From Raja brachyura (Eukaryota): 64,000 nucleotides of DNA. Under the pieces are notes generated by a model. That model saw only the letters and a program-made list of their open reading frames with translations, did no database searches and was not told the origin of the DNA. Every line of letters starts with the position of its first letter. Within the stretch, counting starts at the first letter, position 1. The translations under genes were made by a program, and so were the position numbers. Positions 9,250 through 63,719 of the stretch are shown here, piece after piece. Location: NCBI GenBank assembly GCA_963514005.1, contig OY740804.1, positions 5,394,001-5,458,000 on the forward strand. Reading direction: 5' to 3'.

Positions 9250-9525
9250 CTAAGAAACAACAGAGGCATAAATTGTCTCAGAGTTCTCTGGAGTCCCAGT
9301 AGATTGGGGTTTCCGATTGCCCTTTGGGCAGTTGCGATGAAAATTGACATCTGCGTAGACGACAGCATTGTCAGCCACATGGTGCCTTGATCTCGACTCC
9401 CTTTGACAATTCACCACTGCATACGTGAGGTCACCTTCATTGTTATCCAAATGGTCAGCTGCCCTGTTGTTTCCAAGTTGCTGCAGATTTGCATAAACAA
9501 GGTTTCCTTCCAACACTGCCATTTC
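9250..9525 (-). CDS. Gene A terminal exon with ITIMs LVYANL, LTYAVV, VVYADV and ITSM TIYASV
   Basis: ORF track 9250-9522; acceptor tatattttag; four tyrosine motifs matching ITIM/ITSM consensus; TAG stop. Confidence 0.9.
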   Translation of the reverse strand, partial: EMAVLEGNLVYANLQQLGNNRAADHLDNNEGDLTYAVVNCQRESRSRHHVADNAVVYADVNFHRNCPKGNRKPQSTGTPENSETIYASVVS

Positions 9526-12500
9526 CTAAAATATAACAACATTCAATTTTACAACCTAATATATCTGATAGGTCCTCAACAGATGTCTATTGCAAAATAG
9601 GTCTCAAAGTGTTCAGTGTACAGAACAAGCCATTGCTGCTGTTTACAACACAGAGATAGTGTAGCACGGTGGAGCAACGATAGAGTTGCTGCCTAACAGC
9701 GCCTGCAACGGGTTTGTAGGTTAATTGGTTTGGCATAATAGCAAATTGCCCCTGGTGTGTGCAGGAGAGTTTAGTGTGCGGGGGTCACTGGTCGGCGTGG
9801 AGTCGGTGGGCCCAAGATCCTGTTTCTGCGCTGGATCTCTTAAATGGTGTGGACTGGTGTTGCTAAATGTCCTGTGTATACACAGATAATTCAATATTAT
9901 ATATTCTTCATCACTCAGATAATTTATATTTCACAATTTTACCTGGATGTCATTGTTCTCTTCACCGTGTGATGTATTGCAATTGGATTCTGGAAAATAT
10001 GTTGTCGATAGGGCCATATCAGGAACAGGTTTAAACATCATTCATTCATATATTTCATTCATAGAAGGTACATAGAACTAATATCTCTCATTTCCCGTTC
10101 CCCTGACTCTCAGTCTGAAGAAGGGTCTCGATTCGAAACATCACCTATTCCTTTTCTGCAGAGATGCACCCTGACCCACTGAATTGCTGGAGCATTTTGT
10201 GTTTATCTTCAGTATAAACCACCATCTGCAGTTCCTTCCAACACACAGAAACATCTACGTGTTGTGTGCAAGACCTTATATTTAGGAGAACCCCAAAAGT
10301 ACTGCTGTATATTTGCATGAACGGAGCAAGAATCTGCCCTGTTGCTTTGGTTACTGTACATATTTTTCAGAATGGATCATATTCCCTGTGCTCTACCCAT
10401 CCCTCCTGAAAGCTGCCTAAACCCACCTGATCTCCCGGTTGCTCAACAGTTTAACTACCACTATCATTCCCACACTACCATTTCTGTGCTTGGCCTCCTC
10501 CGTTGTCAGAGTGAGGCCCAGTGCAAACTGGAGGAACAGCACCTCATATTTTGCTTGGGCAGCTTACACCCCAGCGGTGTGAACATTGACTTCTCTAACT
10601 TCAAGTAACCATTGCTTTCCCTCTCTCTCCATCCCCTCCCCATTCCAAATTCTTTGACCAGTCTTACTGTCTCTGACTACATTTTATCTGTGTACCACCC
10701 ACTCCCCTGACATCAGTCTCAAAAAGGGTCTTGACCCGAAACGTCACGCATTCCTTCTTTCCAGAGATGCCGCTTGTTTTGTTCAGTTAATCCTGCATTT
10801 TGTGTCAATCGTCCTAACCTTATCTGCTCCAGCAGCTTTCATAAGTTCATAAGTTATAAGAGCAGAATTATTCTATTTGGCCCATCCATCTACTCCGCCA
10901 TTCAATCGTGGCTGATCTATCGCACCCTCCTAACCTCTTTCTTCTGCCCTCTCTCCACTAATCAAGAATCTATCTATCGATCTATGCCTTAAAAATATCT
11001 ATTGACGGCCTCCACAGCCTTCTGTGGCAAAAGATTCCACAGATTGACCACCCTCTGACTAAAGAAATTCTTCCTCATCTCCATCCTAAAGGGTTGTCCT
11101 TTAATTCACAGGTCATGACCTCTGGCCCTAGACTCTCCTACGAGTGGAAACATCTATTCTACATCCACTCTATCCAGGACTTTCACTATTTGATCTTTCA
11201 ATGAGGATTCCCCCCGTCTTTTCCCTCTTACCCTGTTGTAACGGGTCTTGGATCTGAAATGTTTACTGTTTTACTTTCCACTAATGCTCTCTGACTGAGA
11301 AACAGCTCAGTGAACTTTCACATTTTCATCGGCGATGGAGATAGATGGCAGCTTCAAGTTCATGGGCGTTCACATCTTGGATTACCTGTCCAGGCTAGAC
11401 CTGCCCTGCCTCAACTACCTCCTCTGGCAGCTCCTGCCATATACCTGCCACCCTCTGTGTGAGGCAGGTATGTTGTACGTTGTCTATGTCCCTGTGAGGC
11501 TGCAGGCGTGATCTTCATTGTAACAGTACTTCACTGTGCTTGTGCAAGTGACAATAAACAAGACTTTACCCAATTCGAAATACAACAGCTAATCACACAA
11601 AGCATATTCTAACAGCTGAGAGGATGGGAGTATCTATGTAAATCTTACATCTACCTAGCCTCTTAGTTCTCACGCATCTCTGCCATTTCACGCTCAGACA
11701 GTTTCTGTACGATGATGCTAAAAAAAGTTTTTGTCACAGAGTCACCATGATAGCATCAAACATGATAGCATTATTGATCATTCATGCTTCCTCCTACAAT
11801 TTAATTCATTAATGCAGGGCATTTGTTGATTACAACAGAATAAAAATATCTTGACATTCTGCAAGGAACTGAGACATGTATTGTGAAATTATTTAAGGGA
11901 AATCAGAAACTCACCCTTGGATTTACGCTTTCGGTACCAAAGGAAGGCAATGATGAGAATCAGGAGAAGCACAGTGACACCAGACATAAATATGTAAGTG
12001 ATCCTGTTGGACATAGAATAGGGAAGGGTGAGATATGGCTCATCATTGATTCTTGGCCTTTAGTAAAGAACAAAAGTCAAGCATTTATATGGCACCTTTC
12101 ATACATTTTTTGAAGTGTGCAACAAAGGAAATAAAGTGTAGAGTCTGTTTCGGTGGATAATGCAGCAGCTAATCTGCTGGCATTAAGGTGACATTGACCA
12201 ATGATCGTGAAACTGGTTGAAGAGCAATTGCGTCCAAACATTAAGGAACAACAGATGGGAACCATTACACTTTTATTGCTTTAGTTTAGTTCAGCTGAGT
12301 TTGGTTTAGTAAGTTTAGATTAGTTTAGTTTTTAGATGAGTATAACTTTAAAAATGTAATACTAGGGGGGGACTTTAACTGTGTTATAGATTCATACTTA
12401 GACAAATCAATAAAATTAAGGAAGGGTAGTGTCAAATCCAAGTCTAGTAAATTCTTAAATACATATATAAAAAACGTTAATATAACAGATGTATGGAGAA

Positions 12501-18500: not shown

Positions 18501-21500
18501 ACTGGCTGTGCCACTGTGCATACAGATCAATACTCCAACTGGCCTTTAATGCCTGTGAACGGAAGATACAACTTTCTCCCAATTGAAGCAATCCCAATCA
18601 AAACACCAGCAATTAGTACATGGCATCTTTCATTGGAAACAGAGTAGTTAACCTTGAAGGTAGACAAAAGTGCTGGAGAAACTCAGCGGGTGCAGCAGCA
18701 TCTATGGAGCGAAGGAAATAGGCAACGTTTTGGGCCGAAACCCTTCTTCAGACCCACCATCAGTCTGAAGAGGGGTTTCCACCCGAAACTTTGCCTATTT
18801 CCTTCGCTCCATAGATGCTGCCGCACCCGCTGAGTTTCTCCAGCATTTTTGTCTACCTTCGATTTTCCAGCATCTGCAGTTTCTTCTTGAACAGTTTACC
18901 TTGACGTATACTTGGATCTTTTCGAAGTTTCACAAGAATATTCAAGTCCTGTTGGAACAAGGAAATAAAAATCATTTCATTGCTTTTCACTTGCAGTTGA
19001 ACAAGAGAGCATGCTTGTCTGATGTAAGGAGTTCATAGGCAATGTTTCTTCAGTGTAATTTACAGCAAGTGGGAGATGTTGTCATGATATGCTGGAGCAC
19101 TGGTTACAACTCAGGTCGCCAACAGTATGGCGGCACAGTGGCGTAGTGGTAGAGTTGCTGCCTTACAACGAATGCAGCCCGGGTTCGATCCTGAACACGT
19201 TTGGAGTTTGTACCTTCTCCCCGTGACCTGTGTGGGGTTTCTCCGAGATCTTCGGTTTCCCCCCACACCCCAAAGACGTACAAGTTTGTAGGTTAAATGG
19301 CTTGGTAAATGCAAAAATTATCCCTAGTTAAATGGTTAATAATGTGCCGGGATCACTGGTCGGCACGGACCCAGGTGGCCGAAGGGTTTGTTTCCGCGCT
19401 GAATCTCTAAACTAAAGACGTGCAGGTTTGTAGGTTAATTGGCTTCTGTAAATTGTCTCTTAATTTAGAATTGTCCCTAATTGTATTGGTATACCGGTTA
19501 AAGGCAGCTGCTTCCACACTGGATCTCTAAACTAAACTGGATAGATGGGGTTTTATTCCACACAGGAGAGGAACGAGGAAGCTATTACAGGTTATGCAAT
19601 GCTGTGACGGACATTGATAGGGTACTTCGTGGAAAATCAGCACAGCAGATGTGCGTAGAAGTGGAGAACATTAGAAACATAGAAACATAGAAAATAGGTG
19701 CAGGAGTAGGCCATTCGGCCCTTCGAGCCTGCACCGCCATTCAATGTGATCATGGCTGATCATCCAACTCAGTATCCCGTACCTGCCTTCTCTCCATACC
19801 CCCTGATCCCTTTACCCACAAGTGCCACATCTAACGCCCTCTTAAATATAGCCAATGAACTGGCCTCAACTACCTTCTGTGGCAGAGAATTCCAGAGACT
19901 CACCACTCTCTGTGTAAAGAATGTTTTCCTCATTTCGGTCCTAAAGGAATTCCCCCTTATCCTTAGACTGTGACCCCTTGTTCTGGACTCCCCCAACATC
20001 GGGAACAATCTTCCAGCATCTAGCTTGTCCAACCCCTTAAGAATTTTGTAGGTTTCTATAAGATCCCCCCTCAATCTTCTAAATTCCATCGAGTACAAAC
20101 CGAGTCTATCCAATCTTTCCTCATATGAAAGTCCTGACATCCCAGGAATCAGTCTGGTGAATCTTCTCTGTACCCCCTCTATGGCAAGGATGTCTTTCCT
20201 CAGATTTGGAGACCAAAACTGTACGCAGTACTCCAGGTGTGGCCTCACCAAAACCCTGTACAACTGCAGTAGAACCTCTCTGCTCCTATACTCAAATCCT
20301 TTCGCTATGAATGCTAACATACCATTTGCTTTCTTCACTGCCTGCTGCACCTGCATGCCTACTTTCAATGACTGGTGTACCATGACACCCAGGTCTCGTT
20401 GCATCTCCCCCTTACCTAATCTGCCACCATTCAGATAATAGTCTACCCTCATGTTTTTGCCACCAAAGTGGATAACCTCACATTTATCCACATTGTACTG
20501 CATCTGCCATGCATCTGCCCATTCACTCAGCCTATCCAAATCACCCTGCAGCCTCCAAGCATCCTCCTCACACCTAACTATACCCCCCAGCTTGGTATCA
20601 TCTGCAAATTTGGAGATGTTGCATTGAATTCCCTCGTCCAAATCATTAATATATATTGTAAATAGCTGGGGTCCCAGCACTGAGCCTTGCGGCACCCCAC
20701 TAGTCACTGCCTGCCATTCTGAAAAGGACCCATTTACTCCTACCCTTTGCCTCCTGTCTGCTAGCCAGTTCTCTATCCACATCAATACTGAACCCCCAAT
20801 ACCGTGTGCTTTAAGTTTGTATGCTAATCTCTTATGCGGGACCTTGTCGAAAGCCTTCTGAAAGTCTAGATATAACACATCCACTGGTTCTCCCTTATCC
20901 ACTCTACTAGTTACATCCTCGAAAAATTCTATCAGATTTGTCAGACATGATTTACCTTTCGTAAATCCATGCTGACTTTGTCCAATGATTTCACCACTTT
21001 CCAAATGCGCTGCCATCCCATCTTTAATAACTGACTCTAGCAGTTTCCCCACTACCGATGTTAGACTAACTGGTCTGTAATTCCCCGCTTTCTCTCTCCC
21101 TCCTTTTTTAAAAAGTGGGGTTACATTAGCTACCCTCCAATCCTCAGGAACTACTCCAGAATCTAAGGAATTTTGAAAGATTATCACTAATGCATCCACT
21201 ATTTCTGTGGCTACCTCCTTGAGTACTCTGGGATGCAGACTATCTGGCCCTGGGGATTTATCGGCCTTCAATCCGTTCAATTTACCCAACACCACCTCCC
21301 GGCTAACCTGGATTTCACTCAGTTCCTCCATCTTATTTGACCCCCGTTCCACTGCTATTTCCGGCAGATTACTTATGTCTTCCTTAGTGAAGACAGAACC
21401 AAAGTAGTTATTCAATTGGTCTGCCATGTCCTTGTTCCCCATGATCAATTCACCTGTTTCTGACTGCAAGGGACCAACATTTGTTTTAACTAGTCTCTTT

Positions 21501-24500: not shown

Positions 24501-27500
24501 CTGGCCTACACCAGCACTGGGAAATCTATTTCTGGAGCCCAGCAACCAAGTATTGTCAAATGGGCCATAATTCCATCATTTTAATCTTGATAAGTTATTA
24601 AATAAGTGCATGGATTTTAGGGTGACGGGGTTTATGCGGAGAAGGCAGGAGAATGGGGTGAAGAGGGGAAGATAGATCAGCCATCATTGAATATTCTATT
24701 TCTGTTTCTATCACGTGATCTTATGAACCACCCCACCCCCACTTCCCCTTCTTGTCCTCATTCCCTCAACTACTTACCAGTGCCGTTGATTTTCACTGGG
24801 AAACTGCAGGGCACGTCACTGCTGGAGATGGACACATTGACCGTTTCACTGGATTTTGATCCACGTTGATTTGAGGCTGTGCAATAATATTGATGGTGTT
24901 GGTGTTTGAAGGATTGACAATGTAGGTCTATGGCATTGTTGTCTGAGATCTTTGAATCCACAGATGGGGTCTTTTCATACCAGGTGTAGCTAATGGGAAG
25001 GGATCCCCGGACCGAGTCACAAGACACTGTCACTGAGCCCCCGAGACAGGAGACATTGGCTGGTGACAGGAATCCAAGCACAGGAACAGACACGGGTTCT
25101 GTGGGAAAGGAGCAAACAGTCAGACACTGAGTGAACATCTGAAAATCAAACACTCGCCAATATCCACCATCTCTGTATCTTAGCCAAAGCCGCCAGGTTG
25201 GAATCTGACCCATCGATCTACATAGAATCATAGAGTCATACAGCATAGAAACAGGCCCTTCGGTCTAAATTGCCCACACTGACCAACACCCCCAAACTAC
25301 ACTAGTTCCCCACCTGACCTTTCTTGGCCCTTAACCCTCTAAACGTATCCTATTCATGTACCTGTCCAATTTTTTCTTAAATAGTACCTACAATAACTAC
25401 TTCTGTCGGCAGTTCGCTTCATGTACCTACCTACCTTAGTGTAAAAATGTTACTCCCCAGACACTTGATAAATTACTCCACCCTCATCTTAAATCTATGT
25501 CCTCTGGTTCTTGATTCCCCTGTGTATGCACAAATGCATTTATGAAGTAAATCGACAGGGACTCACTCCAGTACGGATAAGGACAATGTCACTGCTCAAA
25601 TATTGCATTTCAAAGCGACAGCCAAATTGCCCGCCAGAAAGCTCCTTCTCTTCACAATCCATTCACCAGACATGTACATCTCTGTGTCTCTCCATCCTCC
25701 TAGCTGCCAGAACAACCATGTCTGCCACTGTACCAGTACACAGCAGTACCATCTCTATTTGTTTTGTATTTCCAGCATCTGCACTTTTTAAAATCTGAAT
25801 CTCTGCCACAATTCTACAATACCAACATTCAAACACCTCATTAGTGCAACAGTATCACTATCAACAACTTTTTAATTTCCTTGTATAACATTGTTGATAG
25901 CGATACTGTTGCACTAATGAGGTGCGTGAATGGCGGACTTGCAGAATTGTGTGTAGGAAGCGAATGGGAAAGTGGAATAACATAGAACTAGTGTGACCGG
26001 TGATCGCTAGTCGGTGTAAACTCATTGGGCCAAAGGATCCGTTTCCATGTTGCATTTGTAAACTACAACTAAATATCCGGGTGAACCTTTTCTGTAACCT
26101 CGCCAAACCTCTCACATCTTTTGTTTTATAAAGCGGTGACCAGAAATGTGCACCCGACTCCCACCTAACAAATGTTTTATGTGGATGCCAAAGTGGAGAC
26201 ATCAAGTCAGTCGCTGAGAAACCTACCTTCAGATACTTGGAGATGTACATTAAATGTTGGTTCGCCAGGTGTAGTAATTCCACAACTGTACCACCCTGCA
26301 TCTCCAGAGTGAAGATCCTCCACAGTCACAGTAAATATTCCTCGTGCCGGGTTATCTGTGATTGACACTCTTCCGCTCTGTCCATGTTTCCCATTTGTTT
26401 CCACTACATGCGTACACTGGCGACTTGTCCCACGGCACCAGTATTTTGTGTGTGAGCGGTACACTGCTGCATAGCGACAATCGATTGAGATCGCTCTTCC
26501 CACAACCCCGCTTACTTCACTCTCAGCCCACAGCGCTCCTGAAACTGAAGGAAAAATCTTTCATAAATTGAAGAGCAAAATTAGCCTTTCACAAACATAT
26601 ACATTATAGTACACATCAATGTGTACATGGCAGTCTGCCCAATCATTTTCTTAACTGTGTTGAATTCTACCTAGATTGCGATGAGAGACAGATACTGTAC
26701 ACCGTCCCTCACCAACTGCACAGGTCGTTCCAAAGCGCTTCCCAACCAATGTGGGTGTGAATGGTGAAGAATGATGCATTGAACACGGAGCCTGTTGCAA
26801 TTGGAAGGCGCTGTCTTGGGAGTCATGGTGTGTTGCTGCAGTGCATCGTGCAGATGGTGCAAACTGCTGCTGCCCTGCATCAGCGGGGGAAGTTGAGGAT
26901 GGGGTGTCTATCAAGCACGATTCTGGGTCATGACTGACCAAGCACAAGTGTTCAGCGAAACTGTGGTTTAGGCCAGTGCTTCTTGAACTGATGAATGGTT
27001 CACCCAAGGGTGAATGAAATTATTTTGGGGTGAATTTGTTAATTGATGTTTTTTGCTCATGTGACAAAATAAGTTATATATACAATTATACACAAGGGAG
27101 AATAAGATGAAAATTACCACAAAAAAAAAAGATTTAGCCGAAGGGTGAATGAAATTTTGTGCTAAAGACTCAAGGGTGAATGACACTGAAATAGTTTAAG
27201 AAGAAGTGGCATTGGCTGCGCTTGGTCTCGCATATGTAAACCATTCACGCTCAAGGGTGAGAGGAGTCTTTATTGATGCTGATGGAGTTCCTAAGGCACC
27301 ATGTGTGGTAGATGCCCTCCAAGGCTGGTAGCGGTGTCCCAATAATCTTTTGCGCTCTGTGGACGACGCGCTGAAGAGCTCTCCTCCCCGCCTCCGTGAG
27401 ATACCACACAGATGCCATACGTTAGTATGCTCTCTGTCGTGCAGCGGTAGAAGGTCGTCAGCAGCTGTTGGGGCAGACCAGTCCGTTTCAATTTTCTTAG

Positions 27501-45500: not shown

Positions 45501-47539
45501 CCTGCAAATCTAGGGTGCAGTATGGGCCGAATGGCGATTATTCGCAAACAATTGACTCAAAGTATGAGTTACAAAACAATGCCAACATATCTTTTTGAAT
45601 TTTGGTCATTGTACATCCTTGCACTTGCTCCCCAAAGGCAGTGATGCCACCCGCAATAAGCTTGAAATTCTTTGGAATCATATTTCCTGCACTATTGAAG
45701 ACATGGGTGCCCAAATAGTCAGATTCACCGTTGGCACCCTTAGTGAAGCACAATTCACAAGTGTTTCATATAATTCTGCTGTTTCAACCAAAACAGCCTC
45801 CTGAAGCTGGTGAGAAACCAATTAATGTTGGCCGCCAAGGTTACCTTCCATGGCCTCACCGCTGCCTTCAGGTAAAGCACTTTGTGCCACATCAAGTACA
45901 CCTGGATTTATATTCTTGTGCTGTGGTGGGTACTCATGACCAAAATCACCACTTTCAGGGTCAGTCTCCTGCTGCCCTGGTACTCCTGAGACTTGCTCAA
46001 GGAGACTACCTCCAGCCCAATCTGAGGCTCTGGAGGTTCATATTCCTTCGCTCCTTCGAGCTGCTGCACCCGCCGAGTTTCTCCAGCCTTTTGTGTACCC
46101 GTAATGAATATCTTCTTCATTTAACCTCAACTGAGCGTTATGACAATATTTACTTAGCGAGGTCATAGATCACCTTGCAAAAAGCCCTAGCCTTAGTGGT
46201 TAGAGTGAAAAACGTCACTGTTTTTTTAAAAATTGAGAAGAGCTATCATCTTGTATTGATCTCAGGTCACTTTACCCACTCTGGTCTCAGAGCTGGTGAT
46301 TCCAATCACGGCAGCCTCCTGAATGTGAGTTTACTGAGTCCAATGTGACGATGCAATTGAGTCAGGTTTAGGATTTCAGTTCAGACTCAATGCCTAAAGG
46401 CAGACCAAACGTCTAAAACAGAGATTGGTCAGATACAGTGAGAAATCATGTGAAATAATCACTGAATTTTATTTTAATTGAATCTACCTGCATGTTATAC
46501 TGTTTAGTTGGGAGATACAGCGCAGATAGTCCACTGAGTTCGCACCGACCAGCGATTTTATTATTTTCCTATTCGTCAATTTGTGCCCGATTATTTGGTG
46601 GCCAATCAACTGCTGTCTCTAAGGGGTTTGCGTCCAATCACCAACTAGCTTGCCTAAAAATTCCCATCCAATCAACAATTCGGTTGTCTCCTGTCCAATC
46701 TACCGCTGTCTCCAAGGGCATTGTGTCCAATCACATAATGCAGTTTAATAGTAATTAGCAGCTACGCTGAAGGTTGGAAGCCAGCGGAGCTACTGACAGT
46801 CAAACGGGAGCAGGAGAGATTCAGACAGTGTATAATCCATAGCACCTTAGTGTACAATTTCATAATGTATACGAAATAACAGGGCTGACAGACCTTGGCT
46901 GGGAACCTGGGACTCACCAAAATTGTTCCCAATTGGGCCCCGCACCTACTAAGGCCAGCCCTGCCTGAAGCACCCTACTAGAACCAGAGAGCATTGCTGA
47001 ACTCCTATCTACCTCTTTGATGACACTCTGACTACCCTTGATCAAACTTTGCTGGCTTTAACTTTCCTTTCCAAGTATCTATGCACTGTATGAGGATCGA
47101 TTGTGATCATGTATTGTCTTTCTGCTGGCTGGTTAGCAGGCAACAAAAAAGTGTTTCACTGCAGCTCGGTCCACGTGACAAAAAACTAAACTGAATTGGG
47201 AGCCAAATGTCCCGCTACTCATCAGGGACAGGTTCTATTCTCAATTTAAACTATCATCAAGATGCAATTGGACCATGTGACCACAGTGGTTAAACTACGA
47301 ACATAGTCTAGATATTCAAATGTGATTTCAGATCCATCACCACTATGCACTGGTTTCATTTCCTCCATTACATGTCCACACACACTGGTTTCATTTCCTC
47401 CATTACATGTCCACACATACTTAACCATCTCTGCTGTGGAAAGCGTGAACGGGATCCCAACTAACATCGATTATCGGAATATCAACATCTGGTTTCACTC
47501 ACCGGGCAGCGAGGAGATGAGAAGAATGGGAATCCACAT
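9250..47539 (-). CDS. Gene A: inhibitory MDIR/CD300-pIgR-like receptor, 9 coding exons (L-V1-C2a-V2-C2b-stalk-TM-cyt1-cyt2), about 592 aa
   Basis: Exons 47503-47539, 37766-38086, 33685-34005, 26227-26544, 24778-25098, 18900-18948, 11915-12003, 9943-9989 and 9250-9525 all have GT-AG borders and compatible phases (1,1,1,1,1,2,1,0). They total 1779 nt = 592 aa + stop. Joining all nine into one transcript is inferred. Confidence 0.8.
9943..9989 (-). CDS. Gene A cytoplasmic exon (E)[15 protein letters not shown]
   Basis: Acceptor tattttccag, donor CAG|GTAAAA; phase 1 to 0 bridges the TM exon and the ITIM exon. Confidence 0.8.
11915..12003 (-). CDS. Gene A transmembrane exon (R)[29 protein letters not shown]
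   Basis: Acceptor ctatgtccaacag, donor G|GTGAGT; uncharged hydrophobic helix followed by basic stop-transfer residues; phase 2 to 1. Confidence 0.9.
12330..15980 (+). mobile_element. L1-clade LINE, 5'-truncated, ORF2 with stops and frameshifts
   Basis: [35 protein letters not shown]-terminal CxxC...H...C knuckle, A-rich tail; inserted in a (tttag)n SINE tail. Confidence 0.9.
16865..17265 (-). mobile_element. Old CR1 3' fragment (similar ones at ~10840-11210 and ~8760-8890)
   Basis: [17 protein letters not shown]...VVNLWNSLP. Confidence 0.75.
18656..18892. repeat. Palindromic Penelope-derived short element next to the micro-exon donor
   Basis: 18656-18753 is the reverse complement of 18763-18860; flanked by agtt(a/t)accttga at 18646-18657 and 18893-18904. 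Confidence 0.8.
18900..18948 (-). CDS. Gene A 49-bp stalk micro-exon (G)[15 protein letters not shown]
   Basis: Acceptor ttccttgttccaacag, donor AG|GTAAAC; phase 1 to 2 links C2b to the TM exon; a paralogous exon of identical length lies at 57499-57547. Confidence 0.85.
19128..19540 (+). mobile_element. HE1-type SINE (composite); counterpart at ~57745-58010
   Basis: ggcggcacagtggcgtagtggtagag...gggttcgatcc head and tctctaaactaaa tail. Confidence 0.78.
19769..22843 (-). CDS. CR1 ORF2: APE endonuclease plus reverse transcriptase
   Basis: LNARSI, GITETW, MGDFN, SDH; [30 protein letters not shown]; no stops in 1024 codons; true start uncertain. Confidence 0.95.
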   Translation of the reverse strand: MGDQHSGRQVCHCYTDGFKLNKGGGVSNGIVEDGVRGKENKAMVNDPRINGEESSQRDRRVWPSVIGIDVKGATCQHNCIRSKSVVKTSLKALCLNARSIRNKVDELKVQIAINDYAIVGITETWLQDDQGWELNIQGYSIFRRDRRKGKGGGVALLVREEINAIERKDISVEDVESIWVELRNSKGQKTLVGTVYRPPNSSIGVGDGIKQEIRNACNKGNTVIMGDFNLHVDWVNQIGRGAEEEDFLECMRDSFLNQHVEEPTREQAILDWVLSNEEGLVSSLVVRGPLGKSDHNMVEFFIRMESDKIKSETRVLNLNKGNFEGMRCELAKIDWQVILKGLTVDVQWKVFKDCMDEVQKLFIPVWQKNKSGKVVHPWITREIRDSIKTKDEAYKFARKSSLPEDWEKFRIQQRRTKGLIRKGKIDYERKLAGNIKTDCKSFYRYVKRKRLVKTNVGPLQSETGELIMGNKDMADQLNNYFGSVFTKEDISNLPEIAVERGSNKMEELSEIQVSREVVLGKLNGLKADKSPGPDSLHPRVLKEVATEIVDALVIIFQNSLDSGVVPEDWRVANVTPLFKKGGREKAGNYRPVSLTSVVGKLLESVIKDGMAAHLESGEIIGQSQHGFTKGKSCLTNLIEFFEDVTSRVDKGEPVDVLYLDFQKAFDKVPHKRLAYKLKAHGIGGSVLMWIENWLADRRQRVGVNGSFSEWQAVTSGVPQGSVLGPQLFTIYINDLDEGIQCNISKFADDTKLGGIVRCEEDAWRLQGDLDRLSEWADAWQMQYNVDKCEVIHFGGKNMRVDYYLNGGRLGKGEMQRDLGVMVHQSLKVGMQVQQAVKKANGMLAFIAKGFEYRSREVLLQLYRVLVRPHLEYCVQFWSPNLRKDILAIEGVQRRFTRLIPGMSGLSYEERLDRLGLYSMEFRRLRGDLIETYKILKGLDKLDAGRLFPMLGESRTRGHSLRIRGNSFRTEMRKTFFTQRVVSLWNSLPQKVVEASSLAIFKRALDVALVGKGIRGYGEKAGTGY
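22783..23778 (-). CDS. CR1 ORF1: Zn-finger/leucine zipper plus SGNH (GDSL-type) esterase
   Basis: CDAC...CEKC, heptad leucines, [22 protein letters not shown] motifs. Confidence 0.92.
   Translation of the reverse strand: MARESSARRLRKILDRARPRQKKMSSKLMQCDACSMWEVKDTAGASGCYKCEKCIQVQLLKDRVGELEKQVDDLRFIRETESFLDKSFSEIVTPKALEERRWVTVRKGGKHGMQRSPGVVPLVNRFTHVEAAGTEDGIPLSGGLACQTKRADEPNPQRPKSGNAIVVGDSIVRGTDRGFCGNRRDSRMVCCLPGARIQDVTDRVQTILKGEGDQPEVVVHVGTNDVGKKEMIFLQRDFRELGKMLKSRTSRVVISGLLPVPRAGESRNREIWDLNVWLRNWCRGQGFRFLDHWDFFYSKGELYKRDGLHLNRWGTSILAGRFATATRMVLN
23895..24156 (-). repeat. Duplicated ~113-bp 5'UTR monomer of the CR1
   Basis: ccctctgactcactgagaact...gagccaatcagtg...aaatccacgggaagac occurs twice, about 149 bp apart; each copy has a CCAAT box. 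Confidence 0.85.
24778..25098 (-). CDS. Gene A exon: C2/FcR-like Ig domain C2b
   Basis: EPVSVPVL...[18 protein letters not shown]...YYCTASN; 321 bp, phase 1-1; donor G|GTAAGT. Confidence 0.92.
26227..26544 (-). CDS. Gene A exon: V-set Ig domain V2
   Basis: [22 protein letters not shown]...[11 protein letters not shown]...DAGWYSCG; tandem acceptors (26544 or 26538); donor G|GTAGGT. Confidence 0.92.
27200..27575 (-). mobile_element. Rex1/Babar-like fragment
   Basis: [16 protein letters not shown]...[12 protein letters not shown]. Confidence 0.75.
27790..33507 (+). mobile_element. DIRS1-type tyrosine-recombinase retrotransposon (DIRS-1): both ends present, ORFs degenerate
   Basis: gag-like 27962-28700; RT ([11 protein letters not shown]) 30639-31253; RNase H/methyltransferase-like 31358-32272; YR (HSTRAAS) to about 33080; inverted termini 27820-27850 vs 33407-33437; internal complementary region 33198-33300 joining both ends; ATT at both junctions. 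Confidence 0.92.
29603..30588 (-). mobile_element. 5'-truncated CR1 (second young subfamily) inserted in the DIRS-1 RT
   Basis: RT C-terminus and (ctatgttt)n tail; splits DIRS frame KGAIET|[15 protein letters not shown]. Confidence 0.93.
33685..34005 (-). CDS. Gene A exon: C2/FcR-like Ig domain C2a
   Basis: EPMSAPVL...[18 protein letters not shown]...YYCTAS; 321 bp, phase 1-1; acceptor ccacag, donor G|GTGCGT. Confidence 0.88.
34945..36530 (-). mobile_element. Penelope-like element remnant with GIY-YIG endonuclease (interrupted by a Rex fragment)
   Basis: [29 protein letters not shown]...[12 protein letters not shown]; related remnants at ~10400-10810, 17440-18420, 53730-54410, 61940-62900 and 63860-64000. 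Confidence 0.8.
35285..35945 (+). mobile_element. Rex1/Babar-like LINE 3' fragment
   Basis: [21 protein letters not shown]; same family as 48706-49915 in the opposite orientation. Confidence 0.78.
36627..37285 (-). mobile_element. CR1 3' fragment
   Basis: [13 protein letters not shown]...GEKAGTGY with a frameshift; absent from the paralogous gene B intron near 63027. Confidence 0.88.
37766..38086 (-). CDS. Gene A exon: V-set Ig domain V1 (CD300/pIgR type)
   Basis: ITIDCHY...[11 protein letters not shown]...[19 protein letters not shown] with the extra C-C' cysteine pair; tandem in-frame acceptors (exon edge 38086 or 38080); donor G|GTATGT. Confidence 0.92.
39048..41423 (+). mobile_element. 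5'-truncated CR1, near-identical to the full-length copy, inserted in the terminal repeat of DIRS-2
   Basis: 751-aa ORF differs from the ORF2 copy at about 4 residues by eye; ctatgtttct tail; short aagaa duplication at the flanks. Confidence 0.95.
42424..43063 (+). mobile_element. 5'-truncated CR1, near-identical to 29603-30588, inserted in the DIRS-2 recombinase
   Basis: Shares [26 protein letters not shown] with the 29.6-kb copy; same tail. Confidence 0.93.
47348..47417 (-). promoter_or_regulatory. 35-bp tandem duplication in intron 1, each copy with an Ets-IRF composite element (GGAAATGAAA)
   Basis: cactggtttcatttcctccattacatgtccacaca x2; EICE matches at 47354-47363 and 47389-47398. Confidence 0.55.
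47503..47539 (-). CDS. Gene A exon 1: signal peptide [12 protein letters not shown]
   Basis: aaaacaATG start, hydrophobic leader, phase-1 donor G|GTGAGT; continues in frame as (V)SGAVWG in the V1 exon. Confidence 0.85.
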
Positions 47540-47730
47540 TGTTTTATCCATAGTGACAAGGTTAGCACTTGTCTGCCTGTCGCTCAGCTCTGAGCTCTCA
47601 GATACACCGGATCTCTCAATTAACAATGAGGAAGAAGCGAACATGACGTCAGATCCTGGGCCACAGCGAGCCAGCAGCTGTTCGCACGTTGCAGTGTGAA
47701 ATGGCTCAGGGTAATATTTCGCAAATGGTT
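47540..47730 (-). promoter_or_regulatory. Putative gene A proximal promoter/5'UTR
   Basis: Directly upstream of the ATG: PU-box GAGGAAG 47628-47634, perfect CRE TGACGTCA 47644-47651, C/EBP-like TTTCGCAA 47717-47724. Confidence 0.5.
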
Positions 47731-52070: not shown

Positions 52071-52469
52071 CCAGATGTTCATGACCTGGGGGTTTGTGAG
52101 TTCAAAGCAGCCTCTGGTCTCATTTCCTCGTCTCCCCGCTTACTGTGTGGAGAATACGCAAAGTAATCCTTGAGTCTTTCCGAACTTTATGGTGGTTACT
52201 CCGTTATTGCAGGTCACCATTGTTTTATTTTCAAACAACATCCTTAACAGTTCTTTCATGAGCGGGGTTACAGTGACAATTCAGACTGAGGAAAGCAACA
52301 CAATGTATTTGCAGTTTCACACCCCGGTCTTTGCAAGCTGCAACTAAACCATTGCGTCCTGCACAAGAATAGACTTTCCACTAGTTTAGTTTAGAGATAC
52401 AGCGCGGAAACAGGCCCTTCGGCCCACCAAGTTCACACTGACCACGATCGCCGCACATTAACATTATGG

Positions 52470-53288: not shown

Positions 53289-53781
53289 CCTACACACACT
53301 GGGGACAATTTACATTTATAGACAGCCAATTAACCTACGTACCTGTACGTCTTTGGAGTGTGGGAGGAAACCGCAGATCTCGAAGAAAACCCACGCGGTC
53401 ATGGGGAGAACGTACAAACTCCATACAGACAGCTCCTGTAGTCTGGATCGAACCCGGGTCTCCGGTGCTTCAAGCGCTGTAAGGCAGCAACTCTACCGTT
53501 GCGCCACCATGGCCATTATTTATAGTCATCTTTGGACGGTGGACAAAATGAATAACTCGTTGCAGCATTAAAATGTTTATCAATATTACGGTACTCAAAA
53601 GACACGAAAATGGGATGCGATGGAACCAGTGTGAAAGGGTTAATTACTGATTGACGTGGACTAGGTGGGCCAAATGGTCTGTATCCATGCCGTATCTTTC
53701 AATCACTTAATCAAAAAAAAAGTTTAACAAAATGCTGGAGTAACTCAGCGGGACAGGCAGCATCTCTGGATGAAAGGAATG

Positions 53782-53816
53782 GGCGACGTTTCGGGTCGAG
53801 ACCCTTCTTCAGACTG
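53782..53816 (-). ncRNA. Minimal hammerhead-ribozyme-like motif at a Penelope-derived terminus (best of about 12 copies)
   Basis: cagtCTGAAGA-a-GGGT(CTCG)ACCC-GAAA-cGTC: CUGANGA and GAAA boxes, stem II hairpin, palindromic ACGT stem III, GUC triplet; stem I weak. Confidence 0.55.
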
Positions 53817-55063
53817 AAGCCAGGGCAGAGGGGGCTACTTGGATAAGGATCCGTGGTTTGTAAACGGGACAAAGGCGATGGAGATCAAGGAAAATGCAGA
53901 ATAGGTCATTGTTAGTTAGGAGAAGGTAACAACAAAGCATTTAGAGATAAAATGTAGTCGGAGTCTGTGAGACTGCTCGGAGAACTGGGAAGGAGGGGGG
54001 GGGCGGGGAATGGAATGCAAGGTTACTTGAAGTTAGAAGTCAATTTTCACACCGTGGGGGGTGTGAGAGCTGCCCAAGCGAAATATGAGGTGCTCTTCCT
54101 CCAATTTGCGCTGGTACTCAATATGACAATGGAGGATGCCCAGGGCAGAAATGTCATTGGGAATGGGAGGGGCAGTTAAAGTGTTTAGCGACTGGGATAT
54201 CAGTTGGGGGTGGACTGAGCGGAGGTGTTCAGCGAAACGATCGCCTGGAAGCGAGAACAAGCGCAGGCTCGGCGATCGTTTTGCTGAACACCGCTGCTCA
54301 GTCTGCATACCCCTACCTGATCTATCCACAGATACCGCCTGTCACCTGTTACCCCAGCAATGTATGTCCATCTTCTGTTTAAACCAGCATCTGCAGTTCC
54401 TTCCCACCTAAATATTAGTTGCATATAGGAAATGATATCTGCAGATGTTGGATGTGCATAGCGCGTCAGCCAGCATCTGTTGACAGAAAAATAAGGCCAA
54501 TAGTCAGAACAATGTCGATGCATAATTTTGTTCTGATGGGATAGCATGGCATGAAAGATTAATTGATTGCCTTTCCTAAATGCCACTAACGTTTGGCAAC
54601 AGGAGGATTATCCAGCAGTGTGATTGCAGTCTGTTGTGCATCACTAAAGTTGCAGTCAGTACAAAACAAATTAGACAAACCATTTATTGACAACAATCAT
54701 TTATTAAGAAGCATTATGTTGCATTATTATTCATTAATCAAAAAAAATTCATTAGTGAAAAAAAAAATTTCCAGAAAGTTGAAAGCATCTAATATAGTTT
54801 AACAGAGTATTACACTCTGGAGCTGCAGAAACCACGCAGAGGTTAAAACAATAGTTCGAAGCTGTCGAAAAAAACCTTGGAAGAGGTGACAAAAATTAAG
54901 GTGGTGCAAGCTAGGTGTCTTCATTGTAATTCGTGGGTCGAGTGGCGAAGTTCTGATTCATCTCGTCTCTGCAAAAGACAATGTGAAGTCATCAGTCTCA
55001 TTTGACCCGACCGCTCCCAACACAATGCTATCTGGAAGATGGACCCCAACGAATCCACACCGG

Positions 55064-55171
55064 TCACTGAAATCCACTCTGCACACGTACAACCAGACAA
55101 AACCTCGTGAAATCATCTCCATTGAGATTTGGTTTAACTTCAGGATATGAAAACGTGCATGGTTTTTGTTT
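55064..55171 (-). CDS. Gene B candidate terminal exon (35 aa, KQKPCTFSYPEV...)
   Basis: Acceptor-like tgtccattgatag, open phase-0 frame to TGA, AATAAA signals near 54683-54705; no homology support. Confidence 0.35.
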   Translation of the reverse strand, partial: KQKPCTFSYPEVKPNLNGDDFTRFCLVVRVQSGFQ

Positions 55172-58100
55172 CTATCAATGGACAGGGTATTTGAAAGCAT
55201 TAATGGAAACCGTTTGGATACATTCGGCGATGAAAAGTGATTGCTTTGGTCAGGGAGTGTTGAATCTATGGATTTCATTGCCACAGGAGGCTGTGGAGGC
55301 CAAGTCAATTCACACCGGAGATGCTGCCTGTCTCACTGAGGTACTCCAAATCAATTGATATTTTTAAGGGGGAGATTTTGATATTCTTGATAAATAAGGA
55401 TGTCAATGGTTATGGGGAGAAAGAGGAGAATGGGATCGAGAGGGAAGGATAAATCAGCTGTGATTGGGGGCGGATTAGATATGATGGGCTGAATGGCCGA
55501 ATTCTGCTCCTATAATTTATGACCATGGTGACAATAAAACCTACCTTAGAGCCTTTTGTGAACACCTCGGTTGCGATACTCCAGATCACAAGCAGGAGAA
55601 AGAGCAGCCAGCGCCCCACTTTCCATGAGATGTAACTGGGCAGAGGGCAAGAGATACAGAATCAATGGGAGGAAATTAGACGGTTTATCTTTGGAGCATT
55701 TACCTGTTATTTGTTCCATAATCTTGGTGAAGTGGAGCGGGACGAAGCAGCAGAGTTAATGGAGATCATCTTGGAGAAAGAACGGGTGTTAGACGTGGGG
55801 GGAGGGACAACTTATGATCATATGTTGGAGAAAGAGCGGGAGAGGCAGTATCTCTGGAGAGAATGGAGGAAGATTGCAACCTTCACGTGGTCCGCCCTGT
55901 TTCGACTAGTGCAATCAACTCGACGTGCAAATTAGAACAAGTTGTCCACCAACTATAGGCTGTGCACGCCACACGAAAGAAGAAGACTGGGAATCACGGG
56001 AGAGGGAAACTGGGGATGTGGAAGGATAAAAGAACAAGAAGAAAGAAAATCCAGCTGCAAGGAAGATTATAATAAAATCCATATGGATAGACAGGAATAA
56101 TAAAAATGGATCAATTCTAATGATGAAAGGGAGGTGGGGAATAAATATGGAAACGGATGAGGCCAATTATAAAATCAATTAAAAATGATAATGCATAATC
56201 TCACACCCTGGATACCTCTTGGATTAACGCAGTAGGCGTGTGGTTGGAGGAAATGTGTTCGAAACATCGATTAAAGGTTCGCTCATAATGGCGTGGCCTT
56301 TATGAACATTCTTATTTCCTAACGCAAGGGCAATGCAAGAGTGTGATAGAAAGTCAGATCTATTTCAATTGTAATAAGATAAATAACAAAGTATTCTCAC
56401 TTTCGTGACTATATTATGATTGAATATTTAATGGTTACAAGTTTCAACGAGTAAAATAACGTCAGTTAACTCATTTTGCTGTATTCGGTCCAATTCAAGA
56501 CTATTTTGTCATATTCTGCACCAGCGATTTTATGGTGTTTGACCCCATCAGTTGCAAGGTGTTGCCACACGTGATATCAAGGGGGGTGTCTTCGCCCATA
56601 ATTCACAATGCATTTTCCTATCAGCACCACACCAGAGCAAATCACAGCAAAGCTAAACTGCTAGACTTGGGTTTGGCAACTATGTTCATCTCACAGCATT
56701 GGATGAGATTAGTGAAGGAGGTCATGGTGAATACTGCAGGGAGCACTCTCCGAAAAGCAGCAAATGGAGGAACATGTTCTTATCATCCAAGTACATGCAC
56801 AACACAATGAGATGTAAACCCAGTGCGATTTCCCCTTCTGATGAGTTAACTAATAACTGGTTTGTACGTTATATTTATTTTATTAAAGAATATTTAGAAG
56901 ATAAATTTATATTTGGTGTCAGGCTTGAAGCATATACAACAATTGATATGCTTCCTGCTATTTGGGTTAATTGGATCAAAGGCCCATAGAGTAGAGAAGA
57001 CCCATAGAGTAAAGACCCATAGAGTAGAGAAACAGGCCGTTTGGTCATTCAGTCAACTGCACACACGATTCCTGTGTCAATCCTATCTTTATTTTCCCTA
57101 CTTTCTCACCAACTACCACTACCGTCCAACACCCCCCCCACCCCCCACCCACCCCACCCATTCTTCACAGATTCAACCGCTCTCCTGTGCACACGGGCAG
57201 CTTACAACTGGCACGCCTTTGGGAGCTGGAAGGAAACTGGAGAACTTAAATGAAACCAACACAATTAAAGGCTAAACATACAGACCACACATAGACAGCA
57301 GTACAGCACCTAATGAACCTATGTCGTGGCGTTGTGAGGCTGTGGCTCGACAGGCTGTGCCATTGTGCATTCAGATCAATACTCTCACGCATTTAATGCC
57401 AGTGAAAGGAAGGCTTAACTTTCTCCCAATTAAAGCATTCCCAATCAAACTCCAGCAATTAGTACATTGTAACTTTAATTGGAAACAGAGTGGTTTACCT
57501 TGCGGAGTAATTGGATGTTATAGAATTTTCACAAGAATATTCATGACCTGTTGGAACAAGGAAATAAAAGTCAGTTTCACTGCTTTTCACGCAGTTGAAC
57601 AAGTAGGTATGATTTTCCCATGTAAGATTTTCCGATGATAGGCTTAACAGACAGGGTAATGCTTCTTCAAAGTGATTTGCAGCAAATGGAAGATGTTATC
57701 ATAACAAGCAGGAGTGCTGGTAACAACTCTGGCGCCAGGTGTAGACGGCACGGTGGCGCAGCGGTAGAGTTGCTGCCTTACAGCGCCAGAGGCAAGGGTT
57801 CGATCCTGACTACGGATGCTGTCTGTACGGAATTTGTACCTCCTCCTTGTGACCGCGTGGGTTTTCTCCAAGCACTCCAGTTTCCCCCGCATTCTGAAGT
57901 CGTGCAAGTTGGTTGGTTAATTGGCTTCTGTAAATTGTCCCCATTGAACTAGTGTACTGGTGAATACTGGACGCTGTGTACTCAGTGGGCGGAAGAGCCT
58001 GCTTCCATAATGCATCCATAATCAAAAGGGTCCAATTTCACTTGAGAGGAGTAATGCTAGGGACAAAACATTACAGTTATGGGGAGGGGCTGGATTGGGG

Positions 58101-61100: not shown

Positions 61101-63719
61101 ACAAGTAACTGTAGATTGATGTTGCATGTTAACCAATCACACACCAGCCAGCATCTCTAACTCCACCCCGCTGTAATACTGATACTAATACTATTGCTCT
61201 GCACCAAGAGTTGGGGCAGCCAGGATGTATGGATAACTAACCATCCTTCGAGCTGTTAAGTTTTAGTGCTGATTAAAGATGTGTTTGAATCATGTACTGA
61301 GTCTGGAAGTCATTTACATGGCATCGGAAGCGGATGGATCCACTCCTTCTGTATAACGGTTTTTTGTTTTACCCTTTTTTGAGTTTTTAGTTTGCTTTAT
61401 GATGGCCCCTTCCTGTCGAAAGCCTGATCCTCTCATCTTTGATGCTGACATCAGCGAACGCTGGGCCATGTTTCAGTTGTACATGTGCGGATGAGGTCGA
61501 ACTTGGGTGAATTGTGATCAGCTTCGGCCGCTCATCTGTACAAAACATGCCATTGCAGTAAATGACACCTTACTATCCCCCCCTCTTTAAATAGTTCCCA
61601 TTACGTCTGTCCTCCACTTTCTCATCCTACACATCGTGGGAAAGTGAACATGCTTCTTGTGATTGATACATTTCTATAAGTTCCTCGCTCAATCATTTCC
61701 ACACCAAGGAATGAAGTCTGAGTTTGTCCAATCGCTCCCTGCGTTAATCCCATCCTGTCTTGGAGCTGGGGATCTAAAGCTGAACACAATTCCCAGAATG
61801 TGGACTCAACATCTGCACGTCTGCAGCATATTATGTCAAATTATGTTGTGAATGTTCTCACTGATGAAGACCAGCGCGCTAAAACCCCAATTCAATGCCT
61901 TGGAATTTAAAGGCGAAAATTAATTAGGATCCTTTTAAGAAAGACACAAAATGGTGGAGTAACTCAGCGGAGCAGGCAGCATCTCTCGAGAGAAGGAATG
62001 GGTGATGTTTTGAGTCGTGACCCTTCTTCAGCCTGAGAGTCATGGGAAAGGGAGACAGAAGAGAAATGGAAGGGCAAGGTGTGAAAACTATTGATCAAAG
62101 GTGAAAATATAAAAAGAAAATGTAGAATGGATCATTGTCAGCTGAATGGAAGGTGACAACAAGGCATACACTCATTAAAATATAATCAGGAAGACAGTGA
62201 AACTAAATGGGAAACTAGGACGGGCGGGGTGGAGACAGGAGTAAAGCAAGGGTTACTTGAAGTCAATATTCAAACCGCTGGGTTGTAAGCAAAGCCGAAT
62301 TATGAAGTGCTGTTCCTCCAATTTACGTGTGTCCTCACTCTGACAGTGGAGGAGGTCCAGGACAGAAAGGTGAGAAAAAGGGTCTCGACCCGAAACGTCG
62401 CCTATCTCCTTCGCTCCTTGGATGCTGCTGCACCCGCTGAGTTTCTCCAGCTTTTTGTGCAACCCTCGATTCTCCAGCATCTGCAGTTCCTTCTTTAACA
62501 CAAGGTGAGTTTGGGAATGGGAGGGGGAATTAAAGTGTTTAGCAATCGGGGAGTTGCGTAGGCCGAGGCAGACTGAGCGGAATTGTTCACCGAAGCGATC
62601 GCCGAGTCTGCGCTTGGTCTCCCATCTACTATATCCACTTGTTCACGCCTGGAACAGCGGATATAGTAAATGAGGTTACAGAAGATGCAAGTGAACCTCT
62701 GCCTCGCCCGAAAAGGTGCAGGGGAAGGTACCTGGGGAGGGGTTGGTTTGGGTGGGAAAGGACGAGTTGACCAGGGGGTTACGGGGTGAACTGTTTCTTC
62801 GGAGAGCAGAAAGCGGTGGAGATGGAAAGATGTGGTTTGTTGTGGTATCCCGTTGAAGGTGGCGAAAATGTTGGAGGATTATGTGCTGTGTGCGACGGCT
62901 GATGGGGCGAAAGATTAGGTTATCCTGCATACCACCAGGGTAAATGTCCGGGTGGAGATGCTGGCTGGCTGGCTGGCTGGCTGGCGGCGGTGGGTGGACA
63001 GGGGCTGCTGGGGGTGGGGGCACATTGACGGGGCAGAGGGCGCGCGGGGTGGGGAGGAAGTGACTGATACCTGAGGTGAGGGCAACACTTGTTTCTCACT
63101 GATCTGTCCCCCTCGGATTATTAGTTTGAGTGGGAATGCAAACCTCTGACAGGGTGACATTTCATACAGTTCAGAGGCAGGGAAATGTGCTGAGCGTCCC
63201 ACTTGAAGTGTGTGGCCGCTCAGTGGGACAGAGCCCGCACTGGGTGAGAGCAACATGAGTGGGGTTTCCCGACCCCCGCCCGCTCCCCGCAGGTCCCTGC
63301 ACTGCTGCGGAGCCTCGGGATATCGGTGCTGCCCTGAAACTTCCCGGAGAAAACATGGATCAGGCATTTCAGTGGAGAAATCAATCAATCGCTGCGAAAC
63401 GTACCGTCAGATACTTGGAGATATACGGAAAACTTTGGATCCAAGGTAGTTGTATTAATTCCGCAGTTGTACCATCCCGTGTCTCCAGAGTGAAGATCCT
63501 CCACAGTCACAGTAAATATTCCTCGTGCCGGGTTATCTGTGATTGATGCTCTTCCACTCCGTCGGTGTTCCCCTTTTGTTTCCACTAAAACTCTACACTG
63601 GCGATCCCACCCGTGACACCAGTATTTTGTGTGTGAGCGGTACTCTGCTTCATAGTGACAATCGACTGTGACCGCTCTTCCCACAACTCCTTTTACATAT
63701 TTCTTTCCCCACAACGCAC
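55064..63719 (-). CDS. Gene B (5'-partial): activating-type MDIR/CD300-like receptor, V-C2-stalk-charged TM-short tail
   Basis: Exons 63405-63719, 58834-59154, 57499-57547 and 55545-55635 are phase-compatible with GT-AG borders; last exon 55064-55171 is tentative; no leader exon in the window. Confidence 0.78.
55545..55635 (-). CDS. Gene B transmembrane exon (S)YISWKVGRWLLFLLLVIWSIATEVFTKGSK with basic residues
   Basis: Acceptor ctcttgccctctgcccag; phase-2 start fits the micro-exon; donor AAG|GTAGGT. Confidence 0.82.
57499..57547 (-). CDS. Gene B 49-bp stalk micro-exon (G)HEYSCENSITSNYSA
   Basis: Same length, phases and acceptor context as 18900-18948. Confidence 0.85.
58834..59154 (-). CDS. 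Gene B exon: C2/FcR-like Ig domain (close paralog of C2b)
   Basis: [27 protein letters not shown]...YYCTASN; 321 bp; donor G|GTAAGT. Confidence 0.92.
59448..60330 (-). mobile_element. hAT transposon remnant with a duplicated C-terminal dimerisation segment
   Basis: RTSMSNDRLSALALMHVH and RTSMSNNRLSAIALIHIH about 198 bp apart; starts where similarity to the gene A intron ends. Confidence 0.65.
60331..60900 (+). pseudogene. FAM110C: FAM110C-like gene fragment, disrupted
   Basis: PLRLMSKGPGY...SAVERLAADKAK (60390 frame) and, after a frameshift, RPDSLVMYR*KCEFMRG; these match FAM110 family motifs as recalled from memory; preceded by acceptor-like tctttccttctttgcag. Confidence 0.75.
60917..61109 (+). 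repeat. 33-bp minisatellite, about 6 units
   Basis: cagcaccccagggtgcacaagtaa(t/c)cacaccag units; one frame reads AAPQGAQVTTP. Confidence 0.85.
61110..61473 (+). mobile_element. Gypsy-like 5' LTR, PBS and start of gag, truncated
   Basis: TGTA...TACA 61110-61318, TGG-starting PBS at 61319, ORF MAPSCRKPDPLIFDADISERWAMF from about 61399. Confidence 0.65.
63405..63719 (-). CDS. Gene B exon: V-set Ig domain
   Basis: ALWGKKYVKGVVGRAVTVDCHY...KYWCHGWDRQC...DTGWYNCG; 315 bp, phase 1-1. Confidence 0.92.

Follow-up and report, generated by a model that had tools for sequence, protein, structure and literature searches.

Two skate MDIR-family genes, one with an inhibitory-type and one with an activating-type end, in Raja brachyura

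The locus described here raises the question whether two neighboring receptor genes of the skate Raja brachyura, designated A and B, are partners of one another or members of a larger receptor family in which the opposed signaling types are spread over many genes. The window, a stretch of 64,000 nucleotides (nt) of contig OY740804.1 (assembly GCA_963514005.1; C24:5394001-5458000), was translated in six frames; exon borders were fixed by coordinates and small exons were placed using skate proteins. Positions are those of the window unless the prefix C24 is given. The minus strand was found to hold three V-type and three C2-type immunoglobulin (Ig) exons, two transmembrane (TM)-like stretches and a Tyr-rich last exon, and CR1-like and other repeats are interspersed among the Ig exons. 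Pfam V-set scored above cut-off in all three V exons; Ig_2/Ig_3 was found in the three C2 exons, in one of them above cut-off. Both genes are very probably intact members of a cluster of MDIR genes, gene A being of the MDIR3 type and likely inhibitory via a tail with ITIMs (immunoreceptor tyrosine-based inhibitory motifs), and gene B of the MDIR5 type and likely activating via FcRgamma.

Nine coding exons of gene A were joined to a protein of 592 amino acids (aa) with no internal stop (Table 1). The order is leader, V-C2-V-C2, stalk, uncharged TM and a tail with four Tyr motifs, and all eight introns have a GT donor and an AG acceptor. Six exons of gene B were joined to 286 aa, again with no internal stop and with GT-AG borders in 5/5 introns, in the order leader, V-C2, stalk, TM with the residues WKVGRWLL and a 15-residue last exon without Tyr. 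The leader of gene B (C24:5459672-5459636) is found 1.7 kb past the edge of the window; poly(A)-like signals for this gene occur at 54705 and 54688. The limits assigned to the pair in the preliminary description were confirmed, position 9250 being the last base of the gene A stop codon and 63719 the first base of the gene B V exon.

The family to which the genes belong was assigned by protein comparison. When the gene B V exon was searched against longer proteins, 86 relatives were retrieved; by name all of them come from skates, rays or a single shark, and MDIR2, MDIR3 and MDIR5 of the clearnose skate are among them. Gene A is 80.1% identical to MDIR3 (ABC86797.1) over 594 columns and gene B 76.9% identical to MDIR5 (ABC86800.1) over 273 columns; the MDIR3, MDIR5 and MDIR2 proteins together match every coding exon of the two genes, in order. 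MDIRs are described as multigene families that resemble CD300, TREM and pIgR and contain activating as well as inhibitory receptors (PMC3031540). Genes A and B have V domains of the CD300/pIgR/TREM type (3/3 V exons) and modular combinations of V and C2 domains (V-C2-V-C2 in A, V-C2 in B), and the exon counts of the cluster on C24, given below, include activating and inhibitory forms. Judged by sequence, A and B almost certainly belong to the MDIR family. What had been called MDIR-like at first is therefore stated here more strongly, and the division into an inhibitory and an activating type holds, since the two genes match the named proteins MDIR3 and MDIR5. The V-C2 repeat architecture is present as first described, but it is not a novelty, because MDIR3 and MDIR5 already show it; both receptor types and the repeat are on record as named skate proteins, and there is no new receptor type here.

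The likeness of gene A to MDIR3 extends from the leader to the C-terminus, with the same stalk, an uncharged TM and the last three Tyr motifs. MDIR3 is arranged V-V-C2-V-C2, so that gene A has one V domain fewer; in the tail, gene A has an extra ITIM-like LVYANL where MDIR3 has YIDANL, and its last motif begins with Thr instead of Ser. MDIR5 shares with gene B the WKVGRWLL-type TM, the stalk and a short Tyr-free tail. The ectodomain of MDIR5 (V-C2-V-C2) is 79% identical to that of gene A, and gene B differs from MDIR5 in that the middle C2-V is missing, the leader and V are of the MDIR2 type, and the TM carries a Glu not found in MDIR5. MDIR2 (ABC86796.1) is, like gene B, a single V-C2 protein and is the nearest named match to the gene B V domain (75%) and leader; its TM, unlike that of gene B, is uncharged, its tail is long and contains Tyr, and its C2 domain is only 59% identical to that of gene B.

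Outside the cartilaginous fish sequences, mammalian CD300 and pIgR resemble genes A and B in having a four-Cys V domain (positions 20, 34, 41 and 85), and in CD300 inhibitory and activating forms are likewise clustered. Against the PDB, a single V domain matched pIgR and CD300LF/CLM-1 at E=2.6e-19, and the C2 domain matched FCRL5 best, with an E-value that is the sum over six weak stretches. pIgR consists of V domains only, unlike genes A and B. CD300 proteins have one V domain and no C2 domain; C2 exons are present in both genes A and B, which sets them apart from CD300 proper. A single Ig domain with two disulfides is given for CD300 (PMC12447643). FCRL, Xenopus XFL and the KIR-like activating receptors (LILRA2, NKp46, GPVI, OSCAR and FcalphaR) have no CD300-type V domains, unlike the MDIRs.

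Genes A and B could instead be one long gene (V-C2-...-V-C2-V-C2) with alternative TM and tail exons. Database models of up to 2000 aa with eight V domains exist (P0001), and the phase 1 donor of the gene B C2 exon is compatible with the phase 1 acceptor of the gene A V1 exon. However, gene A has its own leader exon (47551-47503), gene B ends in a stop exon of its own with poly(A)-like signals, and MDIR3 and MDIR5 are separate proteins. In another database model (P0004), 558 residues come after a TM that lies in mid-sequence, an indication that automatic annotation has fused models. A single gene is accordingly regarded as extremely improbable, and A and B are treated below as two genes.

The tail of gene A was then compared with five paralogous tails. 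An uncharged TM, three ITIMs and an immunoreceptor tyrosine-based switch motif (ITSM) had been proposed for this gene, and the motif count agrees, with the refinement that the first ITIM is unconserved and that the ITSM varies among paralogues. The TM has no charged residue (best 19-residue hydropathy 2.73), and the four motifs are LVYANL, LTYAVV, VVYADV and TIYASV. The last exon is the sole stretch with four such motifs among 353 stop-free stretches of at least 60 aa in the six frames of the window; the runner-up has two. Motifs 2 and 3 are canonical in 4/5 and 5/5 paralogous tails, respectively, and the fourth is present in 5/5, taking the form of an ITSM in three. This last motif reads TIYASV in three of the five paralogues, SIYASV or LTYASV in the other two, and SIYASV in MDIR3. 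An uncharged TM combined with at least two conserved (I/L/V/S)xYxx(L/V) motifs characterizes ITIM receptors, and gene A has both; on these features it is very likely an inhibitory receptor. Its conserved tyrosines would be phosphorylated and would recruit SHP-1/SHP-2, so that the ITIM tail would inhibit leukocytes in the manner of mammalian receptors.

Gene B was likewise found to agree with the first account of its TM and tail, the WKVGRWLL stretch being located at 55625-55602 and followed by a Tyr-free tail without an ITIM. A WxxxRW-type TM is present in 27/86 database relatives (WKVGRW in 15 of them; WNVGRW also occurs); it is followed by 23 residues or fewer in 22/27, and by no ITIM-like motif in 24/27. 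The Arg is kept in 16/18 genomic copies of the TM exon, and 2/18 contain a stop. A conserved Arg at the N-terminal end of the TM and a short tail devoid of Tyr motifs, both found in gene B, are the marks of an activating-type receptor. Frog XFL receptors with an N-terminal NxxR motif in the TM associate with FcRgamma and form a class unlike the DAP12-associating KIR2DS, and an N-terminal TM Arg also marks the FcRgamma-associating class among mammalian KIR-like receptors (PMC2413239). As the Arg of gene B is at the N-terminal end of its TM, FcRgamma is pointed to rather than DAP12. By analogy with these receptors gene B is probably FcRgamma-coupled, and DAP12 is a less likely adaptor. Having no motif of its own, gene B would activate by borrowing the immunoreceptor tyrosine-based activation motif (ITAM) of an FcRgamma chain bound at the TM Arg, as is suggested by the mammalian and frog receptors.

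Partners of DAP12 usually carry a Lys in the middle of the helix. This counts against the alternative that gene B signals via DAP12 or DAP10, or is a non-signaling receptor or decoy in which the Lys and Arg only mark the outer edge of the membrane. Such a role would fit the position of the Arg, at the very start of the hydrophobic stretch, and the additional Glu of the helix; for signaling, human CD300C relies on a TM Glu and not on a basic residue (PMC12447643). It sits less well with the maintenance of WxxxRW and a short tail in 27 relatives (skates and rays, and a single shark), or with the assignment of N-terminal Arg TMs to the FcRgamma-binding class (PMC2413239). A search of the genome for DAP10 gave two weak matches only (E=0.175 and E=0.716, one with a stop), and no search was made for DAP12. 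The alternative is considered rather unlikely, and coupling to FcRgamma remains the preferred reading.

A candidate for the FcRgamma chain is encoded in the same genome. Two zeta-family TM exons were found, one on C24 and one on C12. The first (C24:19852044-19852130) matches FcRgamma best (E=7.6e-13 vs 5.5e-9 for CD3 zeta); 5/7 of its protein matches are FcRgamma by name, and Pfam TCR_zetazeta is present in 7/7. An exon with the distal YxxL (C24:19854570-19854614) lies 2.4 kb beyond it. The TM exon on C12 (C12:63077436-63077519) matches CD3 zeta best. A complex prediction for the gene B TM and two copies of the FcRgamma-like TM, in which no alignment was used, scored 0.02 against a mark of 0.34 and weighs neither for nor against the association.

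Several points weigh against the assignment of A as an inhibitory and B as an FcRgamma-coupled receptor. Gene B has KxxR and not the tested NxxR, and its TM is only moderately hydrophobic (best 19-residue hydropathy 1.76). The Glu in this TM (55566-55568 region) is seen at that place in 0/17 paralogous copies and in 0/27 database relatives, and adaptor binding might be changed or lost through it; a substitution private to gene B, or an error in the assembly, is no less likely than a signaling role of the CD300C kind. The first ITIM of gene A is canonical in 0/5 paralogous tails, with the Tyr kept in 1/5, and it appears from these sequences to be private to gene A. A search of 20 kb around the TM exon of the FcRgamma-like gene recovered neither its leader nor its proximal ITAM half, and a 2014 survey reported no FcRgamma homologue in shark genomes (PMC4016189); the exon described above argues against such an absence, for this genome. 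Finally, the splice models of both genes rest on splice signals and relatives. Contigs from four sequencing runs over 54800-64000 were mostly short or long interspersed nuclear element (SINE/LINE) repeats, and among the joints listed none matched the predicted gene B junctions. One 2044-nt contig of another organism has V and C2 matches 30 nt apart at ~86% identity, and represents a relative or paralogue and not gene B.

The descent of gene B was traced by pairwise identities. In its first intron and V exon (64715-63080), gene B matches a V-C2 gene at C24:4897078 with 90.6% identity across 1658 nt. Its 3' half (59448-54800) follows that of an MDIR5-like V-C2-V-C2 gene (C24:4989166-4997727), at 82-95% identity in the main blocks. 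The start of the gene B V-C2 intron resembles the first V-C2 intron of four-domain genes. From this pattern, which says nothing on the direction of exchange, gene B is likely a recombinant, in which a leader and V of the MDIR2 type are joined to a 3' half of the MDIR5 type. A recent recombination product in a birth-and-death cluster could be open in frame and yet unexpressed or non-functional. Such a young pseudogene would be in keeping with the mosaic structure of gene B, without the middle C2-V of MDIR5, and with the broken copies in the cluster, which comprise the two stop-containing B-type TM exons and several V and C2 exons. Yet the six exons of gene B are in frame with canonical splice sites, the gene has both a leader and poly(A)-like signals, and single V-C2 genes with a WKVGRW-type TM are annotated in other batoids (e.g. 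P0074 and P0079). A pseudogene is judged improbable, and gene B is taken to be intact.

The relationship between A and B was examined exon by exon. In the preliminary description the V, C2 and stalk exons were called closely related and the two genes a paired-receptor unit. For the C2 exon the first statement holds (84% in protein and 91% in nucleotides to the second C2 of gene A), and the membrane-proximal C2 with its flanks is 84.7% identical over 1245 nt. The V exons are related at family level only, that of gene B being 65% identical to gene A V1 and 69-70% to V2; by identity it ranks 25th of 43 against V1 and 30th of 45 against V2. Two other ITIM genes have V exons that share 97% identity with gene A V2. 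The value is 93-95% for three V exons (C24:4987645, 5886394 and 5598564) that each lie upstream of a B-type TM exon, and the TM exon following the last of the three has a stop. Gene A V1 has a single close relative (84%), within another ITIM gene. The second statement was not borne out: the V domains of A and B, the presumed ligand-binding parts, are not each other's closest relatives, and the closest activating-type relatives of gene A lie elsewhere in the cluster.

These data bear on whether A and B are a dedicated pair like CD300A/CD300C, with the same ligand and opposite signals, side by side and homogenized by gene conversion. The two genes are adjacent on one strand and similar around the membrane-proximal C2, a B-type TM gene is next upstream in 5/6 A-type ITIM genes, and CD300A and CD300C are kept alike by conversion (PMC12447643). 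Since B-type ends make up 18 of the 27 TM or tail classes mapped, however, about four B-type neighbors in six are expected by chance. Furthermore, the V domains diverge to the extent given above, V exons upstream of three B-type TMs are far closer to gene A V2 than is the gene B V exon, and A has two V-C2 units where B has one. A dedicated pair is therefore quite unlikely. A and B appear, from their sequences, to be paired at the level of the family and not as two particular genes, and it is doubtful that they share one ligand. The CD300/pIgR-type V domains would bind ligand and the FCRL-like C2 domains would act as spacers; lipids or immunoglobulin are leads for the ligand, taken from CD300 and pIgR only. 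Activating and inhibitory forms would be paired across the family by ectodomain exon swaps within the cluster, and because of such swaps neighbors are not necessarily partners.

The cluster was mapped by searches with the exons of A and B, and the counts are lower bounds. V exon searches gave 69 matches, 67 of them on C24 (45 close and 22 divergent or partial). C24 also holds 35 distinct C2 exons, 18 B-type TM exons, six A-type TM exons, all of them with an A-type tail behind, and three more distant tails. Nearly all exons lie within C24 4.82-5.90 Mb, a span of ~1.1 Mb. A tentative reading is that receptors are put together in this 1.1-Mb cluster by the shuffling of V exons of the CD300 type, C2 exons of the FCRL type and two signaling ends, with an FcRgamma gene on the same contig; the excess of activating-type over inhibitory ends, about two to one, is part of that reading and equally tentative. 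No genomic description of an MDIR cluster was found in the literature searched, the key MDIR papers not being among it.

Table 1. Coding exons of genes A and B located in the window, with the comparisons that identify them
Exon	Position	Strand	Remarks
Gene A leader, coding part 49 nt	47503..47551	-	16/16 residues identical to MDIR3 N-terminus; GT donor, phase 1
Gene A V1, CD300/pIgR-type V, four Cys	37766..38080	-	Pfam V-set E=6.5e-12; 78% MDIR5 V1, 74% MDIR3 V2
Gene A first C2	33685..34005	-	Pfam Ig_2/Ig_3 below cut-off; 80% MDIR5 first C2, 75% MDIR3
Gene A V2	26227..26538	-	Pfam V-set E=5.8e-14; 90% MDIR3 third V, 85% MDIR5 second V
Gene A membrane-proximal C2, FCRL-like	24778..25098	-	88% to last C2 of MDIR3 and MDIR5; best PDB match FCRL5
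Gene A stalk micro-exon, 49 nt, phase 1 to 2	18900..18948	-	15/17 residues match MDIR3; AG/GT
Gene A TM, helix without charged residue	11915..12003	-	85% MDIR3 TM; hydropathy 2.73
Gene A first tail exon, 47 nt	9943..9989	-	14/15 residues match MDIR3
Gene A last exon, four Tyr motifs and stop	9250..9525	-	80% MDIR3 tail
Gene B V, MDIR2-type	63405..63719	-	Pfam V-set E=7.7e-12; 75% MDIR2 V, 70% MDIR5 V1; PDB matches pIgR, CD300LF/CLM-1
Gene B C2	58834..59154	-	86% MDIR5 last C2; 91% nt to gene A second C2
Gene B stalk micro-exon, 49 nt, phase 1 to 2	57499..57547	-	Matches MDIR5 stalk; AG/GT
Gene B TM, WKVGRW with Arg at helix N-terminal end and gene-specific Glu near C-terminal end	55545..55635	-	28/31 residues identical to MDIR5 TM
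Gene B last exon, 15 residues and stop, no Tyr	54921..54968	-	12/16 residues match MDIR5 C-terminus; AG acceptor, phase 0

Two features of the exon model of gene A were noted. The TM exon has two in-frame acceptors, at 12057 and 12003; the former yields a product 18 residues longer, and MDIR3 agrees with the latter. The 18-residue stretch before 12003 is open in the four paralogues compared. A candidate 63-nt tail exon (11717-11655), in frame and bordered by AG/GT, was excluded, as the acceptor AG is absent in 5/5 paralogues and MDIR3 has no counterpart.

Remnants of cluster exons were found in and near gene A. The intron between V2 and the following C2 contains an inverted, broken remnant of another MDIR ITIM-tail exon (25520..25661, plus strand), which matches the L033 tail exon at 80% identity across 143 nt (E=3e-31) and is part of neither protein. 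The paralogues at C24:4988547 and 5011644 carry, within the same intron, two inverted matches to tail exons that contain a stop; this marks an old inversion. Immediately downstream of gene A, 4820-4891 (minus strand) weakly matches pieces of the MDIR tail exons (E ~2.6) and may be a decayed copy or a chance match. Elsewhere on C24, two copies, 95-98% identical, of a divergent CD300-like gene that has a single V and a WNIMRW (NxxR) helix flank A and B ~80 kb apart (C24:5387739 and 5467960), and many of the 22 divergent or partial V matches lie at 5.17-5.39 Mb. One database model (P0084) joins a TRIM69-like RING/B-box to an MDIR V-C2-TM; it is likely a fused automatic model, or else a hint that a TRIM gene borders the cluster there.

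The introns of gene A also hold long repeats. An element at 19680-23793 (minus strand) has two open frames of 336 and 1025 aa, and a copy in the opposite orientation lies in the first intron (39048-41423, plus strand; 99.7% identical over 2376 nt). Judging by their reading frames we take these to be CR1/LINE-like, and they are likely products of recent retrotransposition. Two degenerate retroelement copies, presumably DIRS-like, occur at 30633-32619 (plus strand) and 43134-45136 (minus strand) and are 66% identical over 2 kb. Truncated LINE 3' ends at 29604-30244 and 42424-43064, in opposite orientation, are 99.7% identical over 641 nt.

The locus yields exact exon models of MDIR3- and MDIR5-type genes, which automatic annotation calls 'pIgR-like' or 'FCRL5-like' and sometimes fuses. 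Gene B, if read correctly, would be a chimera of recent origin whose helix has gained a Glu. The parts worth following are the cluster as a whole and the FcRgamma partner, as a candidate adaptor from the same genome lets the coupling of activating MDIRs be tested directly. If the WxxxRW helix binds an FcRgamma chain, FcRgamma-coupled paired receptors would be placed at the base of jawed vertebrates, contrary to the report of FcRgamma only from bony fish.

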